The position numbers and the translations under genes were made by a program. From an uncultured Candidatus Saccharibacteria bacterium (GTDB lineage Bacteria > Patescibacteriota > Saccharimonadia > CAILAD01 > GCA-016700035): a DNA stretch of 58,517 bases. Position 1 is the stretch's first letter; the number at the start of each line of letters is the position of its first letter. Location: assembly GCA_964583675.1 (NCBI GenBank), contig CAZOVH010000004.1:39275-97791 (forward strand), written 5' to 3'. The notes under the pieces were generated by a model, which was given only the letters and a program-made list of their open reading frames with translations, did not search any database and had not been told where the DNA came from. Shown one piece after another: positions 17,398-49,820 of the stretch.

Positions 17398-17700
17398 ATG
17401 GCCATCGACGATGTTGAGGCTACCGGTGTTGTCGAAGATACCGACAGCGATGCAACCTGGCAGATGTTCGCCAACTGCCTAGGAGCCGATCCAGATCTGT
17501 TCTTCCCCGAGCGTGGTGCATCCACCAAGGAAGCGAAGTCCGTCTGCCAGGGGTGCGTCGTCCGCGAAGACTGCCTGGAATACGCCCTTGCTCAAGGTGA
17601 GAAGTTCGGCATCTGGGGTGGCCTCTCTGAGCGTGAGCGTCGTCGCATCCGCCGCCAGCGTGCTTTGACACGAGCCTACCAGCAATCGCGTCAGATCTGA
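17398..17700 (+). CDS. WhiB-like (Wbl) Fe-S transcription factor
   Basis: C-x26-CxxCx5C (ANC...CQGCVVREDC), the GIWGG turn and an Arg-rich tail. GGGAGGG lies 5 nt upstream of the ATG at 17398. G+C is about 58% by hand count. Confidence 0.85.
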   Translation: MAIDDVEATGVVEDTDSDATWQMFANCLGADPDLFFPERGASTKEAKSVCQGCVVREDCLEYALAQGEKFGIWGGLSERERRRIRRQRALTRAYQQSRQI

Positions 17701-18234: not shown

Positions 18235-18711
18235 ATGTCTGAACGCCAGGATCCACAAGTAAAAAAACTTGTTTTAGAAAGCTATCTAGCGATGGCAAAA
18301 AATAGTTTGGGTGCTAAAGTGTGGCAAAACTATTTTGCCGAAGTTGACGGAGAAAAACTCGACATCATGTATGGCGGCTCCAACGCTTGCGCTTGGTTTG
18401 TGTCCGGCGTATTGGTAATGCACAAGCTCATCGGCTCAAGTCATGCCACCGTTGCTTCTACCGTTGAAGATTTAGAAAAATCACAATGGCACAAAATTAC
18501 TGAACCAAAACCAGGAGCTATCATTGTATATGCACCACTTACATTTCAAGATGGCTCCACCCATGAGCATGCTGCAATCTACATTGGTGACGAACGCGCA
18601 ATTTCTACTAGCTACCAAAAAGCCGTCCCTATTGAACATGACTGGCGCTACCGCGATCATGAAACTCGCGAAGTTACCGCGATATATTACCCGACCGTTT
18701 GGCCAACCTAA
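18235..18711 (+). CDS. hypothetical protein with NlpC/P60- or CHAP-like Cys...His arrangement, no signal peptide
   Basis: GGSNACAWFVSG (candidate nucleophile) and HEHAAIYIG (candidate His). Family assignment is by pattern only. Confidence 0.35.
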   Translation: MSERQDPQVKKLVLESYLAMAKNSLGAKVWQNYFAEVDGEKLDIMYGGSNACAWFVSGVLVMHKLIGSSHATVASTVEDLEKSQWHKITEPKPGAIIVYAPLTFQDGSTHEHAAIYIGDERAISTSYQKAVPIEHDWRYRDHETREVTAIYYPTVWPT

Positions 18712-18718
18712 ATAAAAT

Positions 18719-18740
18719 CCCCGTCCAATGTAGGACGGGG
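18719..18740 (-). terminator. terminator between convergent genes, best for the minus-strand pyrE-like operon
   Basis: CCCCGTCC-aatgta-GGACGGGG. On the minus strand it is followed by ATTTTATTT. Confidence 0.65.
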
Positions 18741-18747
18741 GTGTTGC

Positions 18748-19653
18748 CTATTCAGGCGAGATTTTGGAAATCTGCCAACGACTGAGCGGCAAATACCCAC
18801 CACGGTGGTCGCCATCTGGCGCCGTGATCTCCAAAAGGATTTCTGCTTCTGGATGCGCTCGACGATCCGGATTGATGATCTTGCCGCGAACCTCCTTCAG
18901 ATTACGAGCACCGTCCTGATACCGCACGGTACGAACTTCGCCAAACGGAATCCTTGGATCGAGATCCAGCGTCGTGAAGCCCCCTTCGTAATCAGGATTT
19001 CGCTCCTGGAATGCCGCACCATGTGCCAAATTGGTCACAATCGGTCGTGAAGCCAACTCATCAGGCAGCTCCCCGACTGCAAAGCTTGGAATGTCCAGCT
19101 GCACACCTGCCGTGAAACGAGGAACGCCAAGCGTCTCAGCGGTTGTGGCTCGCGAGCGATTAACAATGCACGCAATACCAACCACGTCACCGCCGGCTGC
19201 CCCCACCACGTTCGCAGTCTTGACGGCTGAACCGCCAGTCGTGATGACGTCTTCCAGCACCAAGACACGACGCCCATCCACAGCCTCGGCAAAACCAGCA
19301 CGGTCCAGCACGAAATCGTCACGCTCCTTGTCTGCCCAGACGGTCTTGAGCGTCCAGTACTGCGAGTGGAAAGCGAAAGCCGAAACCAGATAGACTCCGC
19401 CAACCGCCGGCGCAATCACCACTTCTGGCTTCTCCTCGGTTGAACAACCTTCGAACCACCGCATGCACCAATGCCCAAGAACTGGCTTGAGACTGGCGGG
19501 ACGTACGAAGAGACGATCACAGTCCACGTACGTGTCACCATGACGACCCGACTTGTAAACGAAGTGCTCGCCTGTGATAACGGCCTTCGCCAGCGTAAGC
19601 TCATGCCTGATAGCATGCTCATGACGCGGGATAGCAGCTTCAGCTGTGCTCAT
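18748..19653 (-). CDS. pyrE: orotate phosphoribosyltransferase-like PRTase with about 100-aa C-terminal extension
   Basis: FVYKSGRHG...Y and the PRPP loop VLVLEDVITTGGS. It is next to pyrF and has high GC3. Confidence 0.65.
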   Translation of the reverse strand: MSTAEAAIPRHEHAIRHELTLAKAVITGEHFVYKSGRHGDTYVDCDRLFVRPASLKPVLGHWCMRWFEGCSTEEKPEVVIAPAVGGVYLVSAFAFHSQYWTLKTVWADKERDDFVLDRAGFAEAVDGRRVLVLEDVITTGGSAVKTANVVGAAGGDVVGIACIVNRSRATTAETLGVPRFTAGVQLDIPSFAVGELPDELASRPIVTNLAHGAAFQERNPDYEGGFTTLDLDPRIPFGEVRTVRYQDGARNLKEVRGKIINPDRRAHPEAEILLEITAPDGDHRGGYLPLSRWQISKISPE

Positions 19654-19865
19654 TGGATGATTCCCTTCTCTCGGAAAAATTCGTCTGGGATTACGCCCTC
19701 GCCGAGCAGCTCAGCCCACAGGCATCCCAACGTATCGCCAGGATCCAATTCGAGCGCACGAACGCCGTCGAGAACATCTCCACTCAACACACCGGAGCAT
19801 GCTTCAATGAGTTTGTCGACCGATGGCAGTCTCTGCAAGCTTTTGCTTACATCGTCAGAGGACAC
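19650..19865 (-). CDS. small acidic hypothetical protein, translationally coupled to the PRTase gene
   Basis: 71 aa, ATGA overlap at 19650-19653, high GC3 in this frame. Confidence 0.45.
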   Translation of the reverse strand: MSSDDVSKSLQRLPSVDKLIEACSGVLSGDVLDGVRALELDPGDTLGCLWAELLGEGVIPDEFFREKGIIQ

Positions 19866-19899
19866 ATTTACTCCATGTCGTAGGTACAGTAACCGTGCT

Positions 19900-19928
19900 A
19901 TTTTACAATTTTTGAGTCAATTTTTCAA
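19900..19928 (-). promoter_or_regulatory. sigma-70-type promoter for the 19865-18748 operon
   Basis: Minus strand reads TTGAAA, a 17-nt spacer, then TAAAAT. Confidence 0.5.
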
Positions 19929-19957
19929 TAAAATAGCCCCCTCGATTTCGAGGGGGC
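19927..19957 (-). terminator. rho-independent terminator of pyrF
   Basis: GCCCCCTCG-aaat-CGAGGGGGC (9 bp) followed by TATTTTATT on the minus strand. Confidence 0.8.
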
Positions 19958-19964
19958 AAAAGCA

Positions 19965-20918
19965 CTAGACATCATTACTGACATCCGGAACGATTCGGGC
20001 CAAGTTAATGACATTGTTCATTCGCACCGCTTCGGCTCGCGCCGCTTCTGCGAATGACTGGTCATCGAGAGCGTCGGCATAGAGCACCGACCGCGAGGCG
20101 TTGATGATGAAACCGTCGCCACGCGAGTTCATGCCGTTCTGCACTGCCAGCTCGAGGCTGCCACCCTGCGCACCAACTCCGGGGATGAGGATAGGAATAT
20201 CGTCACCGACCAACCCACGAACCACTCTCAGCTCGTCTGGAACGGTTGCCCCAACCACGACTGCGCAGTTACCGTTGTGGTTCCAGTTGGCTCGAACAGA
20301 GCCAGCAAGGTACTGGTAAAACGGAACCTTCGGCTGGTCATAACCATTCATGTAGGCAGACACAGCTGAAGGGATGTCCAGGGCGACAGCCTCCCCATAA
20401 CCCTCAATGGTGACTTGCCTGTCCTGGAACTCATCAGCGCCAGGATTGCTGGTACGAACCAACACAATCACACCACGATCTTCGCGTTCGAGAAAAGGCT
20501 TCATCGCCACGTGACCCATGTACGGATGCACAGTCACCGCATCTGCATCCAGAATGTCGAACGCGTACTGTGCGTACCCAAGATTGGTGTTGCCAATGTC
20601 GGCCACCTTCGCATCAAGAATGACCACCACATCAGGGTAATGACGTCGGATGTAAGTCACAACCTGCTCAAGCATCTCCAGACCATGGGCGCCGTGCCGC
20701 AAGAAGAACGCCCAGTTGGGCTTATACGCGCATACCACATCGTATGTGGCATTGATGATCTCCTTGAGATAGGGCACCAAAACACCCGCCGAACTCTCAC
20801 GATCTGTCATGTGGCTCGGTGCCTGCTTAAAGATCTTGTCCATGTCGGGATCCAGCCCAACACAGACAAACCTGCCCTCGCCCCACTGAGCCTGCAAACG
20901 ATCGTTGAACCGTCCCAC
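19965..20918 (-). CDS. pyrF: orotidine-5'-phosphate decarboxylase, long (type 2) form
   Basis: VCVGLDPD and ILDAKVADIGNT signatures, 317 aa. G+C is about 58% by hand count. Confidence 0.85.
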   Translation of the reverse strand: MGRFNDRLQAQWGEGRFVCVGLDPDMDKIFKQAPSHMTDRESSAGVLVPYLKEIINATYDVVCAYKPNWAFFLRHGAHGLEMLEQVVTYIRRHYPDVVVILDAKVADIGNTNLGYAQYAFDILDADAVTVHPYMGHVAMKPFLEREDRGVIVLVRTSNPGADEFQDRQVTIEGYGEAVALDIPSAVSAYMNGYDQPKVPFYQYLAGSVRANWNHNGNCAVVVGATVPDELRVVRGLVGDDIPILIPGVGAQGGSLELAVQNGMNSRGDGFIINASRSVLYADALDDQSFAEAARAEAVRMNNVINLARIVPDVSNDV

Positions 20919-20982
20919 GACAGTCCCCTTTCTTTCTAGGTACTGCAGGTGATTATAAAATTAGTAAGAGATCACAACAAGC

Positions 20983-21723
20983 TTAAGCAGTCGCGCGATC
21001 AAGCACGTCGTCGGGAATATCGAAGTTCGCGACCACGCTAGAAACATCATCAAGATCATCAAGAAAACTAATCAACTTCATGATGCTGCGAGCTTTTCCT
21101 TCGTCTTCTACACGCACGGTTTGGTTGGGCACAAGCTCCACATCGGCAGTGTCGACATTATCCTCGCCTAAGGCCTCTTTAACGGCTTCCAGGTCTTTTG
21201 GCGCTGTATAAACCACCAGCTGATCGCCTGAATCATCAATATCGGCAGCTCCGGCTTCGATCGCCACAAGGCTCATTTCGTCTTTATCGGCACTGGCCTT
21301 GCACAAAATAAGGCCTTTTTTATCAAACATATACGCAACCGAGCCGGTCGAACCGAGATTGCCACCATATTTAGAAAACGTGCTTTTTACGTCCGATGCC
21401 GTGCGATTGCGATTGTCGGTAAGCGCCTCAACCATTACTGCAACACCAGCTGGCCCGTAGCCTTCGTACACCAATTCCTCCAACGCAGCACCACCGGCCG
21501 TGCCAGCGCCACGAGCGATCGAACGATCGATATTGGCAGACGGCATGTTGGCTTGCTTGGCTTTCTGAATAGCCAAACGCAAACGAAAGTTGGTTTCTGG
21601 ATCCGCACCTTCGCGGGCCGCGAGTGCAATTTCATTGCCAAGCTTCGTAAAAATTTTTCCACGCTTAGCGTCTGCAGCACCTTTTTTGTGCTTAATACTA
21701 TGCCATTTACTGTGACCACTCAT
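20983..21723 (-). CDS. yebC: YebC/PmpR-family transcriptional regulator
   Basis: MSGHSKWHSIKHKKG...AKRGK N-terminus, diagnostic of the family. Confidence 0.9.
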   Translation of the reverse strand: MSGHSKWHSIKHKKGAADAKRGKIFTKLGNEIALAAREGADPETNFRLRLAIQKAKQANMPSANIDRSIARGAGTAGGAALEELVYEGYGPAGVAVMVEALTDNRNRTASDVKSTFSKYGGNLGSTGSVAYMFDKKGLILCKASADKDEMSLVAIEAGAADIDDSGDQLVVYTAPKDLEAVKEALGEDNVDTADVELVPNQTVRVEDEGKARSIMKLISFLDDLDDVSSVVANFDIPDDVLDRATA

Positions 21724-21732
21724 ATAGGTGGA

Positions 21733-23142
21733 TTATACCTGTTGAAGCGATTTTTTTGAAGCCCGCCGAGCACCGAATAGCATAAATACGCCAAGTCCCG
21801 CAAAACTTGCCCACATTGTAAAGCTACTCATCGCAATGCTCATACTTGCATTTGGGATACGCGCAAGCACCTGAATGGTTTGCAAAATAGACAATAAAAA
21901 CCAGTTTGCCACGAATGCAATACCCCCAGAGAACGGCAGTGCGAGTACGCTAAACGCGGCCACAAGAAAACTTACAAGCATGGCAACTGGAATAAACGGC
22001 AGGATCACCACATTTGCTAGTGGAGCTATCGTAGAAAAACTGCCAAACACATGCGCAATGAGAGGCGCCGTAGCCAGATGAGCAGCCAGCGAGACTGCAA
22101 AAATCTCCCAGAACAGCTGAAACTTGCCCGGATTTTTTGGCATAAACACCGGCGCCAAAAATACCACGCCAGCAAGAGCCAAAACGGAGAGCTGCCACGA
22201 AAGATCTGTATATAAGAATGCCGGACTCCAAGCAGTCATCGCAAAAATTGTCGCTGCCAGAGCTACTCCAACTGAAAGCTTCTTGTTTTGAGTACCTACA
22301 ATGAGTACTAAGGTAGTCATGACTGCAGCCCGCATGACAGAAGATGTTGCGCCCGTCATAAGTACGTAAAAACCAACCAACGCCAATATCGGAATGACCG
22401 TCCTTACTCGCAGCTTGCCACGCAAAAACGTCAGTACCAGGGCCATGATAATTGTCAGATTAAAGCCAGAAACCGCCACAATGTGCGTTAACCCAGTTTG
22501 CTGTGTTGCCTGCCGGACATCATCTGGAAGCTGACTAGATCCACCAAATAACAGCCCGCTCGCAAAACTTGCAGCTGCTGGCGAAAGCGATCGTTCGAGC
22601 CCTTGTTGCATCGTGCGCTTAATCCGAACTGGCAACGACGGAACAGCGTTCACCGTAGCAACTTCTGCATACCATACCTGCGCATTCGCACGCCCCAATG
22701 CCCTGCCAAGCTTGCCTTGTACTCGGACAGTCTGACCTTCAAAAATACCACTGGAGAGCGTTTTTACTTTTACTAAGCCGGATATTTTCTGGCCGTCCAG
22801 GCGCACATCCTGCATGTAGAATTCGTAGAGCTTATCGTCATTCCAAAACGGTGTTCCTTGCACCACGCCAACCAGTTGGTGCTTTTGGCCAATATAACTG
22901 CGAGCATCTGTCTTGCCTGGCGGAACAAATGTCATCTGCCCACGCAACAAGCCAGCACACAGAAAGATTGCACAGAGAGCAATGTAGCCCACCCAACTTT
23001 TTACAAAATACAAAATTATGACTGAGCTTACTGCTAGCCATACCCAAAAGAGTTGTGAGAAGCCAGTTGCAAATTGCGTGGCAAGCCCCAGGCCAAAAAG
23101 CCACGCCAAAACACAGACCCATATCTGCTTTGTTCGTTTCAT
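21733..23142 (-). CDS. comEC: ComEC/Rec2 DNA-uptake channel (competence domain only, no metallo-beta-lactamase domain)
   Basis: Multi-TM protein with a DUF4131-like OB region and the GLTHIVAVSGFNLTI motif. Confidence 0.8.
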   Translation of the reverse strand: MKRTKQIWVCVLAWLFGLGLATQFATGFSQLFWVWLAVSSVIILYFVKSWVGYIALCAIFLCAGLLRGQMTFVPPGKTDARSYIGQKHQLVGVVQGTPFWNDDKLYEFYMQDVRLDGQKISGLVKVKTLSSGIFEGQTVRVQGKLGRALGRANAQVWYAEVATVNAVPSLPVRIKRTMQQGLERSLSPAAASFASGLLFGGSSQLPDDVRQATQQTGLTHIVAVSGFNLTIIMALVLTFLRGKLRVRTVIPILALVGFYVLMTGATSSVMRAAVMTTLVLIVGTQNKKLSVGVALAATIFAMTAWSPAFLYTDLSWQLSVLALAGVVFLAPVFMPKNPGKFQLFWEIFAVSLAAHLATAPLIAHVFGSFSTIAPLANVVILPFIPVAMLVSFLVAAFSVLALPFSGGIAFVANWFLLSILQTIQVLARIPNASMSIAMSSFTMWASFAGLGVFMLFGARRASKKSLQQV

Positions 23143-33795: not shown

Positions 33796-34158
33796 TTATT
33801 TTCCTTCTTCCCATAAAACGATTCTGTGCTTAAACCACTTTTCTTGAAATTCTAGTTTGCTTTCCAACTCAGCCTCTGTGTACTTCGTGCCATCACTGGC
33901 AATTAACTTGTCTTCGTTATCATCTTTGCGATGCACATAGCCAATACACTGAGCCGAGACTGTCTTTAGCGGCTTGTCAGAAGACAAATAGTACACATCA
34001 ATTGGGTCACCATCACCCGCCTTGGTATCGGGTACGAATCCATAATTTAGAGGGTAGACCATGTCAGGAAATTTTGGGTGCACAGAACCCAAGGGACGAT
34101 CGAATTCAACTTCAATCGTTGCCCCTAGAAAATCTTTGCCCTGTGCAATTTTTGTCAT
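33796..34158 (-). CDS. ppa: short inorganic pyrophosphatase-family protein
   Basis: YPLNYGFVPDTKAGDGDPIDV matches the family I PPase active-site region. Only 120 aa. Confidence 0.6.
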   Translation of the reverse strand: MTKIAQGKDFLGATIEVEFDRPLGSVHPKFPDMVYPLNYGFVPDTKAGDGDPIDVYYLSSDKPLKTVSAQCIGYVHRKDDNEDKLIASDGTKYTEAELESKLEFQEKWFKHRIVLWEEGK

Positions 34159-49298: not shown

Positions 49299-49328
49299 AA
49301 AAAAAAGAACCTCACAGATGTGGGTTCT
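49299..49328 (-). terminator. minus-strand terminator (second of two tandem hairpin modules)
   Basis: Minus strand reads AGAACCCAC-atct-GTGAGGTTCT (one bulge) followed by T8. A similar module lies at 49272-49298. Confidence 0.6.
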
Positions 49329-49340
49329 AAAATAATTACT

Positions 49341-49820
49341 ATGGTGGACATACTGAGTCGTCTTTCGCGGTCACACCGCGATCTGGAAAAACGAACCGTA
49401 AGCGGAATCCATACGAACAATCGATGGATTGGATCGGAGAAGCCGGCGGATCGGAAGCAGACCAGGAGAGTCACTCACCTGCTGCCCGAGCTGGCTGCGG
49501 AGATCGTGGAGCGCTACCAGACCGGATCACTCATTCGTGAGCTAGCAGAAGAGTATGGAGTACACCGCTCTACCGTGATGGCCTACTTACGGCGAGCTGG
49601 GATACCGAAGTACTCCGGGTGGAGTGAGAAGACCGCTGCCGAGGCAGCTCGGCTCTACGAGTCTGGACTCACGATTGCGGAAGTGGCAGCTCGGGTGAAC
49701 CACTCACCTACGACTGTCGGACGGAAGCTACGAGAGGCCGGCGTGAAGATGCGGCCGAAGGGGTTTCAGGCGGCTAGGTCATTCGGTGATATAATTAATG
49801 AAGTAAATATAGGATACTAA
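49341..49820 (+). CDS. DNA-binding protein with two tandem helix-turn-helix units (resolvase/sigma-region-4-like)
   Basis: LIRELAEEYGVHRSTVMAYLRRAGI and TIAEVAARVNHSPTTVGRKLREAGV. High G+C except for an AT-rich last 35 nt. ATG at 49341 preferred over GTG at 49320. Confidence 0.6.
   Translation: MVDILSRLSRSHRDLEKRTVSGIHTNNRWIGSEKPADRKQTRRVTHLLPELAAEIVERYQTGSLIRELAEEYGVHRSTVMAYLRRAGIPKYSGWSEKTAAEAARLYESGLTIAEVAARVNHSPTTVGRKLREAGVKMRPKGFQAARSFGDIINEVNIGY

Follow-up and report, generated by a model that had tools for sequence, protein, structure and literature searches.

A 58,517-nucleotide stretch (the window) of contig CAZOVH010000004.1, from an uncultured Candidatus Saccharibacteria bacterium, carries between yebC and ruvC two adjacent genes that would convert orotate to orotidine monophosphate (OMP) and then to uridine monophosphate (UMP). 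One is pyrF, encoding a long-form OMP decarboxylase. The other encodes a phosphoribosyltransferase (PRT) resembling orotate phosphoribosyltransferase (OPRT), and it is tied to two small proteins, a helical protein of 71 amino acids encoded just upstream (orf71) and a beta protein fused to its C-terminal end. Together they probably form a real pyrimidine module, maintained by selection in a wastewater Saccharibacterium with a genome of 0.92 Mb, as part of a truncated UMP route that is fed from outside the cell, at a locus that is old but recombining. The host genome (G000) comprises 921 kb in 17 contigs, is 99.26% complete, and has a G+C content of 47.4%. Near-identical DNA occurs in wastewater and bioreactor metagenomes, in 20 listed runs from 10 studies (3 of these runs being possible sources of the genome), and in a tree of PRT sequences the rows from the host's order group with rows titled Saccharimonadia or Saccharibacteria.

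The two apparent transcription units and their enzymes

All features of the module lie on the minus strand, at positions that agree with an earlier reading of the DNA letters (the sequence-only reading). That reading had called pyrF (19965..20918; 317 amino acids, GTG start) an unmistakable long-form OMP decarboxylase, and the profiles concur: the protein scores 206.9 bits against TIGR02127 (pyrF_sub2), above the curated cut-off of 110.6, and 104.3 bits against PF00215 (cut-off 27). The hallmarks of OMP decarboxylases are a catalytic D-x-K-x-x-D motif and an N-terminal Asp strand, and both VCVGLDPD and DAKVADIGNT are present in the translation. In profile score and catalytic motifs the protein is thus like the type-2 enzymes of TIGR02127; unlike their norm, it has an inner segment of about 53 amino acids (158-210) that occurs in two unrelated versions among near-identical alleles. 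Against a contig from the same species (L115), pyrF differs at 19 synonymous and 2 non-synonymous codons, which points to purifying selection. The same two activities are joined in the bifunctional pyrF-pyrE or UMP synthase proteins (NF004034 PRK05500; Leishmania 3QW4), and NF004034 matches the pyrF part of the window with 127.1 bits. Unlike those proteins, the window has two genes side by side in two apparent transcription units, parted by a terminator, a promoter, and orf71.

The PRT gene (18748-19653) encodes 301 amino acids. By profiles, fold, and alignment, residues 1-233 (18955..19653) comprise an OPRT-like catalytic domain and a subfamily tail. The protein matches PF00156 with 34.2 bits (cut-off 26.3), the best of its 22 NCBIfam matches is TIGR01367 (pyrE_Therm; 102.5 bits), and TIGR00336 (pyrE) follows with 63.3 bits. 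Its phosphoribosyl pyrophosphate (PRPP)-binding loop, VLVLEDVITTGGS, is orotate-PRT-like, as had been read from the sequence. An AlphaFold2 (AF2) model had a mean predicted local distance difference test (pLDDT) score of 89, and the nearest solved structures were OPRTs, namely, 4paw in Foldseek (1.3e-12) and 4paw (Z 18.6, root mean square deviation 2.8, 185 residues aligned) and Mycobacterium tuberculosis 5hkl (Z 18.0) in a VIA fold search. The adenine PRT 2dy0 came next in the VIA search, with a Z of 16.5, and because it lies only about 2 Z units below the OPRTs, fold alone cannot fix the base or substrate. The residues invariant in 26 aligned relatives (H30, P82, A83, G85, R118, E134, D135, T138, and R166) are all kept here. 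K34 is present as well, together with R118, E134-D135, T138, and R166, all of which except K34 are invariant in the 26 relatives, as judged from the sequence alignment. In Salmonella typhimurium OPRT, the Lys of KSG, the loop Arg, the Thr after the acidic pair, and the Arg of (V/I)xDR/NR are presumably the orotate-binding and loop residues. The PRT groups with orotate PRTases. It would accordingly be classed by profile and model as an OPRT of the Thermus/Mycobacterium type. A PADLOC match of the PRT to ShosT (E 0.0047) was ascribed to the shared PRT loop.

With the OPRTs of that type (TIGR01367; 5HKF/5HKL, HP1257 4PAW, and Corynebacterium diphtheriae 2P1Z) the window PRT has in common the type I PRT fold, the PRPP loop, the best profile match, and the usual pyrF neighbor. 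Unlike them, it bears a C-terminal tail of about 40 amino acids that is limited to one subgroup, comprising Saccharibacteria, other Patescibacteria, some Actinomycetota, and Chloroflexota. The tail (about residues 190-233) follows the pattern RPIVTN.(A/G)HG..F....P.Y.GG, common to a subgroup of relatives of 211 to 254 amino acids and reading RPIVTNLAHG..F....P.Y.GG in the window, and it is modeled with a pLDDT of 95 to 97 up to about residue 230. Also unlike those OPRTs, the PRT has a fused 68-amino-acid orphan beta domain and is translationally coupled to an orphan helical protein, in a genome in which no PRPP synthetase was found. The C-terminal extension of about 100 amino acids that the sequence-only reading described does exist; it is really two things, the subfamily tail of about 40 amino acids and the 68-amino-acid product of a fused gene.

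The signals around these genes would divide them into two units. In the 64-nucleotide gap between yebC and pyrF, a TATAAT hexamer (20952..20957) was read directly and is a possible -10 box of pyrF; it failed the -35 criterion of our promoter scan. Behind pyrF lies a hairpin resembling an intrinsic terminator (19936..19957; 9 pairs, 8 of them G-C, and a T-rich tail), and before orf71 stands a promoter-like TTGAAA-17-TAAAAT (19900..19928), which matches 10 of 12 consensus positions. Both signals are where the sequence-only reading had placed them. A single match of this kind is weak because the scan of the region gave 5 promoter-like sites versus 2.7 +/- 1.6 in shuffled sequence. The element TTGAAA-17-TA(A/G)AAT precedes orf71 in all three congeners examined (G004, G001, and G003), the hairpin behind pyrF recurs in G004 and G001, and a second hairpin, which would close the orf71-PRT unit (18719..18740; found by hairpin scan), has counterparts 3' of the small beta ORF in G004, G001, and G003. 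The two-unit layout thus appears to be conserved among congeners. The first unit would be pyrF, and the second, running from its own promoter to its own terminator, would hold orf71 coupled to an OPRT with an absorbed beta-protein gene. Logan contigs of four runs cover the region, three of the runs being labeled "RNA? (probably DNA)"; one metatranscriptome gave 151-nucleotide pieces in pyrF and a 241-nucleotide piece in the NlpC-like gene and is uninformative on transcription either way.

The order yebC-pyrF-orf71-PRT-small ORF-ruvC is complete in three relatives (G001, G004, and G011). G009 keeps the order with a short-type pyrF of 260 amino acids in the slot of the type-2 gene (L006 2761-3543; PF00215, 106.2 bits), which looks like in-place displacement by a distant paralogue. 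G008 keeps it with a chimera of 148 amino acids (L105 1438-1884) that joins the N-terminal half of orf71 to the C-terminal half of a classical, Escherichia coli-like OPRT (PF00156, 21.4 bits) and is probably a deletion remnant; its OPRT part is a third OPRT type at the locus. The complete congener G003 keeps the order without any pyrF, and in G007 the interval from yebC to ruvC holds no more than a remnant. Since six further genomes of the family thus share this gene order from yebC to ruvC, the locus should be old in the family. Counting the window, PRT adjoins pyrF in 10 of 12 loci, the exceptions being G003 and G032.

The rest of the UMP pathway and the supply of PRPP

The sequence-only reading saw a two-step route from scavenged orotate to UMP. 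The two adjacent genes for these steps are there, and no other pyrimidine gene was found in the window by Pfam scans of 54 further ORFs and the YebC, WhiB, and NlpC/P60-like ORFs, RuvA, RuvC, and ComEC (named from their translations without a profile scan) lying outside these scans. The route does not stop at two steps, since pyrC and pyrD lie next to each other on another contig of the genome (C2), between the RNase HII gene and rplS. The best match of the dihydroorotase, PyrC, is TIGR00856 (pyrC_dimer, the E. coli type), with 257.8 bits against a cut-off of 292.95, and the motif DDWHVHLRDG is present. The dihydroorotate dehydrogenase, PyrD, is class-1-like and matches PF01180 with 131.6 bits (cut-off 27). 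With these two enzymes, the cell would have four consecutive steps, from N-carbamoyl-aspartate through dihydroorotate, orotate, and OMP to UMP.

The steps before these gave no such matches in G000. No match to PF02729 (OTCace_N), which would reveal an aspartate carbamoyltransferase (pyrB), was found, and PF02786 (CPSase_L_D2) for carbamoyl-phosphate synthetase gave only 24.6 bits, in an ATP-grasp frame of 356 amino acids. The pyrC and pyrD that the sequence-only reading had asked about are in the genome; pyrB and carB were not found, nor was a complete pathway elsewhere, with neither OTCace_N nor carbamoyl-phosphate synthetase. PF01979 (Amidohydro_1) and PF14681 (UPRTase) likewise had no match in G000. 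Nor did the N domain of PRPP synthetase, PF13793; the two TIGR01251 matches were weak (32.2 and 24.8 bits) and fell on PRT and on a second PF00156 ORF (27.3 bits) on contig C1, and TIGR02322 (PhnN) gave only 29 bits, on the canonical gmk. Every profile search for the missing enzymes gave matches in all 14 control genomes. By these profiles, the genome appears to encode the route from carbamoyl-aspartate to UMP without its first two steps or a known PRPP source. Because no PRPP synthetase was found here, and a search of 40 genomes of the order found one in a single genome, a working OPRT would lack a known source of its co-substrate, which is missing from the orotate-to-UMP route as first proposed. 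The entry metabolite and PRPP would come from the host, from the surroundings, or from an enzyme not yet recognized.

A second guanylate-kinase-like gene lies 1.2 kb from pyrC-pyrD, with rplS between (G000:C2:120674-121366; L098 8675-9367, minus strand; 230 amino acids). It matches TIGR03263 with 65.7 bits, in the N-terminal half only, and PF00625 with 24.4 bits, and has a raised G+C content at third codon positions (GC3) of 0.645; the canonical gmk is on C1. A role for it as a PhnN-like, PRPP-forming kinase was unsupported, as TIGR02322 matched the canonical gmk only.

The cited passages of a report on T. rhizospherense describe that organism as being without PRPP synthesis and without the steps from PRPP to UMP (PMC6031116), and those of a study of two groundwater Saccharibacteria strains give "10 of 14" pyrimidine enzymes (PMC7786006). 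The absence of PRPP synthesis, a partial pyrimidine pathway, and dependence on outside nucleotides, as these passages have it, would all apply here. Our literature search found no paper joining "Saccharibacteria" with "orotate" (the supplementary enzyme tables of PMC7786006 were outside its scope), and literature on pyrE, pyrF, orotidine, or phosphoribosyltransferase had none with Saccharibacteria among the matches listed.

Gaps of this kind are also what a decaying relic of an ancestral de novo pathway would leave, its reading frames open yet useless without the synthesis of PRPP and carbamoyl-aspartate. The pathway is patchy in the order, PF00215 being found in 27 of 59 genomes, PF01180 (DHO_dh) in 20, and OTCace_N in 16; no PRPP synthetase gene (prs) was found; and close relatives show loss and wreckage, G003 having no pyrF, G007 only a remnant, and G008 the chimeric ORF. 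However, all four genes are intact in G000, pyrF has far more synonymous than non-synonymous differences, and every residue that is invariant among the PRT relatives is kept. Congeners share the promoter and terminators, runs from 10 studies contain near-identical copies, and incoming alleles replace genes at this locus and do not destroy them. On balance, a relic seems unlikely.

A fuller pyrimidine cluster was observed in other genera of the order, with OTCace_N, a PF00215 frame, and DHO_dh within about 4 kb (G015:C7:80930-84459, G025:C1:115262-118762, G038:C15:1319-4804, and G014:C16:2336-5365). The PF00215 frames in these four genomes are 471 to 494 amino acids long and are possibly pyrF-pyrE fusions.

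The two orphan proteins and the work of the phosphoribosyltransferase

orf71 (19650..19865) encodes a small acidic helical protein of 71 amino acids, with a GTG start behind GGAG, and its stop codon overlaps the PRT start (ATGA), in line with the translational coupling read earlier. Before the PRT gene, relatives carry one copy (G003 and G004), two tandem copies (G001 and G009), or a fused double copy (G011). Relatives of orf71 were taken from six-frame searches, a word-index protein search having returned its own cluster only; its profile had matches in 13 of 59 genomes from the order and, at the level of the class, in 15 of 300, with strong ones in the window's family only. The AF2 model (mean pLDDT 83.7) has five helices, the first of which (4-10) lies inside a low-confidence N terminus. 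No family was found for it in Pfam, NCBIfam, PADLOC, or PHROG, its fold had no Foldseek match at an E of <=0.001, and its profile reached an E of >=0.25 at best against PDB sequences. Nor is a CARD or death-fold family claimed for it: the best match across VIA was the NOD1 CARD at Z 5.4, with many other CARD or death-fold rows at Z 4 to 5, under the noise level for helical bundles. The ESM Atlas rows (GWxTD, MafI immunity, MshEN, and others), with TM scores of 0.44 to 0.60 on a low-confidence Atlas model, were taken as noise, with no usable feature match. Weaker orf71-like copies were seen as an ORF of 77 to 99 amino acids that follows a Nudix gene and converges with a PRT gene of the PF00156 type (ComF-like) (L106-L108, in G022, G031, and G029), and an orf71-like domain forms the C-terminal domain of an acidic protein of 230 amino acids and of a DUF6886 protein (L109 in G010; L110 in G032).

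The fused beta-protein gene is the part of the PRT gene that encodes residues 234-301 and the stop codon (18748..18954), 68 amino acids that correspond to a separate ORF in relatives. An ORF of 86 to 96 amino acids aligning to this part lies directly 3' of PRT in G001, G003, G004, G009, and G011, and in G008 it stands behind the chimeric ORF. The separate ORFs carry an extra proline-rich tail ending in PWFG, PWWV, or PWLS, which is absent from the fused form. Three clusters, with 15, 9, and 6 sequences, represent that form of 300 or 301 amino acids, and because the sequences come from several sources, the fusion is not an assembly error. Judging from these alignments, the 3' end of the PRT gene has absorbed the downstream gene for the beta protein. 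Five beta strands are predicted for the domain, with block-mean pLDDT values of 55 to 83. Its profile found 6 proteins at an E of <=0.001 among 1.84 billion representatives, one of which, P0082, was rejected as spurious (1547 amino acids, a TIG-repeat protein matched over profile positions 13-49 only). Against PDB sequences the profile found nothing; the best ESM Atlas score for the C-terminal domain, 0.84, came with no family and was set aside as noise; and the lists from whole-protein Foldseek and VIA searches of PRT were filled by the PRT domain and not by the beta domain. Neither orphan had a match in PADLOC or PHROGs. Both proteins appear from these searches to be lineage-restricted orphans, and, as the sequence-only reading had remarked, the standard enzymes account for neither the small ORF nor the extension.

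The enzymes themselves are ordinary; a UMP module leaves unexplained the fusion, the coupled orphans, and the PRPP source. Several other observations also weigh against this reading. PyrC and PyrD score below the NCBIfam equivalog cut-offs, and PRT is below that of TIGR01367 (102.5 versus 150.25 bits). Between the window and L115, the differing codons of PRT number 3, all non-synonymous (0 synonymous), which is not enough to demonstrate selection, and over the region the cDNA libraries give short contigs only. Of 40 genomes of the order, just 1 had a PF13793 match, although 23 of the 40 carry a clear PRT homologue (E <= 1e-15); three weaker matches (E 3.5e-5 to 2.7e-4), which would bring the count to 26, were taken as a second PRT-fold gene like the match on C1 of G000. 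G003 keeps orf71, PRT, and the beta ORF without pyrF or pyrD; a truncated UMP route explains neither this pyrF-less set nor the PRPP source. Finally, a purely UMP-synthetic role fits poorly because 8 of the 23 PRT-bearing genomes are without PF00215 (G003, G021, G023, G024, G026, G028, G030, and G032).

The last two points speak for a different reading, in which orf71, PRT, and the beta protein make up an independent unit of three parts that mainly serves some purpose other than OMP synthesis and for which pyrF is merely a frequent neighbor. Such a unit might be a PRTase for another base or donor, or might run in reverse, with the small proteins as subunits. Its own promoter and terminator set it apart from pyrF, no prs was found in 39 of 40 genomes, PRT falls under the OPRT equivalog cut-off, and three sequence clusters have the beta gene and PRT as a fusion. 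Against this stand the best sequence and fold matches, which are all OPRTs, the proximity of PRT to pyrF in most loci, and the pyrC and pyrD of this genome, and we regard the reading as quite unlikely. In a related and speculative proposal, to which we likewise give little weight, the three proteins would be a self-contained machine of a lineage without PRPP synthetase, in which the orphans would suit an OPRT scaffold to a life on host metabolites, perhaps by coupling the OPRT to an unrecognized source or import of PRPP or by allowing another ribosyl-phosphate donor or base.

Age, composition, and recombination of the locus

The sequence-only reading proposed a horizontally acquired module with a G+C content of about 58%. 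This figure holds for PRT codons 1-217 (57.8%) and is too high for pyrF (55.6%) and orf71 (53.7%). GC3 in the module is 0.57 to 0.64 versus 0.40 to 0.48 in the flanks and a genome mean of 0.463 (standard deviation 0.081), with pyrF near the 95th percentile of the genome. Composition does differ from the flanks as proposed, but the modules of relatives are raised likewise: GC3 exceeds that of ruvC and yebC also in G003, G001, and G008 and, for pyrF only, in G004. About 5% of the ORFs of G000 have a GC3 of >0.64, and many are clustered (C1 98-116 kb, C2 125-139 kb, C13, C10, and C4 8-40 kb), the clusters being candidate foreign islands; pyrD (GC3 0.655) is among these high-GC3 ORFs.

A nest within Actinobacteria had been expected. 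In a quick maximum-likelihood tree of 105 PRT rows, from which L010 (N runs) and L045 (X) were left out, the window PRT fell in a clade of 12 rows (support, 99) made up solely of genomes of the same family and metagenome proteins. The 3 Actinomycetota rows were scattered and need 3 changes. The clade includes subclade A (support, 95), with the window, P0002, P0003, P0007, P0008, and G011, and subclade B (support, 99), with G003, P0004, P0005, and P0011. Among the best 120 matches of pyrF, the named proteins are from Berkelbacteria (52%), Patescibacteria, Yanofskybacteria, and Ktedonobacterales. No mobility gene was found at the module borders among the Pfam-scanned ORFs of the window, the nearest resolvase-type helix-turn-helix ORF being at 49320-49820. 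From this evidence the module does not appear to be a recent insertion, and the relatives of neither enzyme point to an actinobacterial donor. A recent island for stand-alone orotate salvage, derived from a donor of high G+C content (an actinobacterial host, for example), is very unlikely and largely refuted by synteny: its raised GC3, a WhiB-type gene 1.3 kb off, and the clear recombination signals in both enzymes speak for it, but the same locus and gene order in six family genomes and the remnant in G007, the GC3-raised modules of relatives, the lack of flanking mobility genes, the same-family PRT clade, pyrF neighbors from Patescibacteria and Chloroflexota, and the presence of pyrC and pyrD all speak against it.

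The selected, truncated UMP module that we favor has been reworked by recombination. Residues 1-215 of PRT are 42% identical (90/215) to those of P0004, whereas residues 216-301 are 100% identical (86/86), which places an approximate recombination junction at codons 215/216 (19006..19010, at the protein level only). With P0002, an unfused protein of 233 amino acids, the window PRT shares 88% identity over residues 1-215. It seems that a type-B gene, already fused, had its catalytic domain swapped for a type-A domain, or the reverse. An orf71 variant, P0073, is 94% identical to orf71 of the window; its contig has a length (20529) equal to that of the contig of the type-B PRT P0059, and by this match the two would share one contig. 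The idea that the type-B allele, with LSGGNH for KSGRH, is inactive was dropped, since the solved Helicobacter pylori OPRT 4paw is also without the Lys. pyrF shows a similar pattern against P0084, with identities of 99% (1-157), 26% (158-210), and 98% (211-317), so that residues 158-210 would be a swapped segment. A metagenome scan with the C-terminal 84 amino acids of PRT found no DNA of the alternative PRT allele, only the same-species contig L115 and one weak match.

L115 is 98.5% identical to the window over 18438-22433, with 59 mismatches that are unevenly placed: positions 18438-19964 have 3 differing codons and 2 intergenic changes, versus 51 differing codons in pyrF, yebC, and comEC together. 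Such a step in divergence would fit a segment, orf71-PRT, that has recently swept through the species or been transferred. The locus is best described, from these comparisons, as a recombination hotspot that has been rewritten repeatedly by diverged Saccharibacterial alleles, and gene exchange here would be recombination among Saccharibacteria inside genes.

Neighboring genes and biological meaning

The module is flanked by yebC and comEC on one side and by an NlpC/P60-like gene, ruvC, a WhiB-type gene, and ruvA on the other. The WhiB-type regulator (17458-17700, plus strand; PF02467, 87.3 bits; G+C 60.9%, GC3 0.667) lies between ruvC and ruvA on the opposite strand, and a WhiB-like ORF adjoins ruvC in G007 (L111) too. 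Between PRT and ruvC is an ORF of 158 amino acids (18235-18711, plus strand) with sub-threshold matches to NlpC/P60 (21.0 bits) and CHAP (20.5 bits); it shares 67% identity with the ORF in the same place in G009 (L006) and is not at that spot in G003, G004, or G001. Farther away, an ORF of 120 amino acids (33796-34158, minus strand) covers positions 26-103 of 153 of an inorganic pyrophosphatase profile, with 50.3 bits; truncation or an error in calling its start may be the cause.

In the cited passages of PMC6031116, Saccharibacteria cannot make nucleotides or PRPP. Unlike the organisms described there, the window's lineage retains pyrC, pyrD, an apparent OPRT, and pyrF, the genes for four consecutive late steps of UMP synthesis. 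The demand on the host would be narrowed to carbamoyl-aspartate, dihydroorotate, or orotate, plus PRPP. There remains the paradox of a predicted OPRT that is widespread in an order where only one of 40 genomes yielded a PRPP synthetase. If the three-component machine were real, it would explain why orf71, PRT, and the beta protein survive in G003 and elsewhere in the order where a genome is without OMP decarboxylase. The locus also appears to record in-place gene replacement in an epibiont of 0.9 Mb, in which catalytic domains or inner segments that are 26 to 42% identical have been exchanged between flanks that are 98 to 100% identical. Each of the two orphan proteins is tied to a well-understood enzyme, and this would make each a tractable target for assay.

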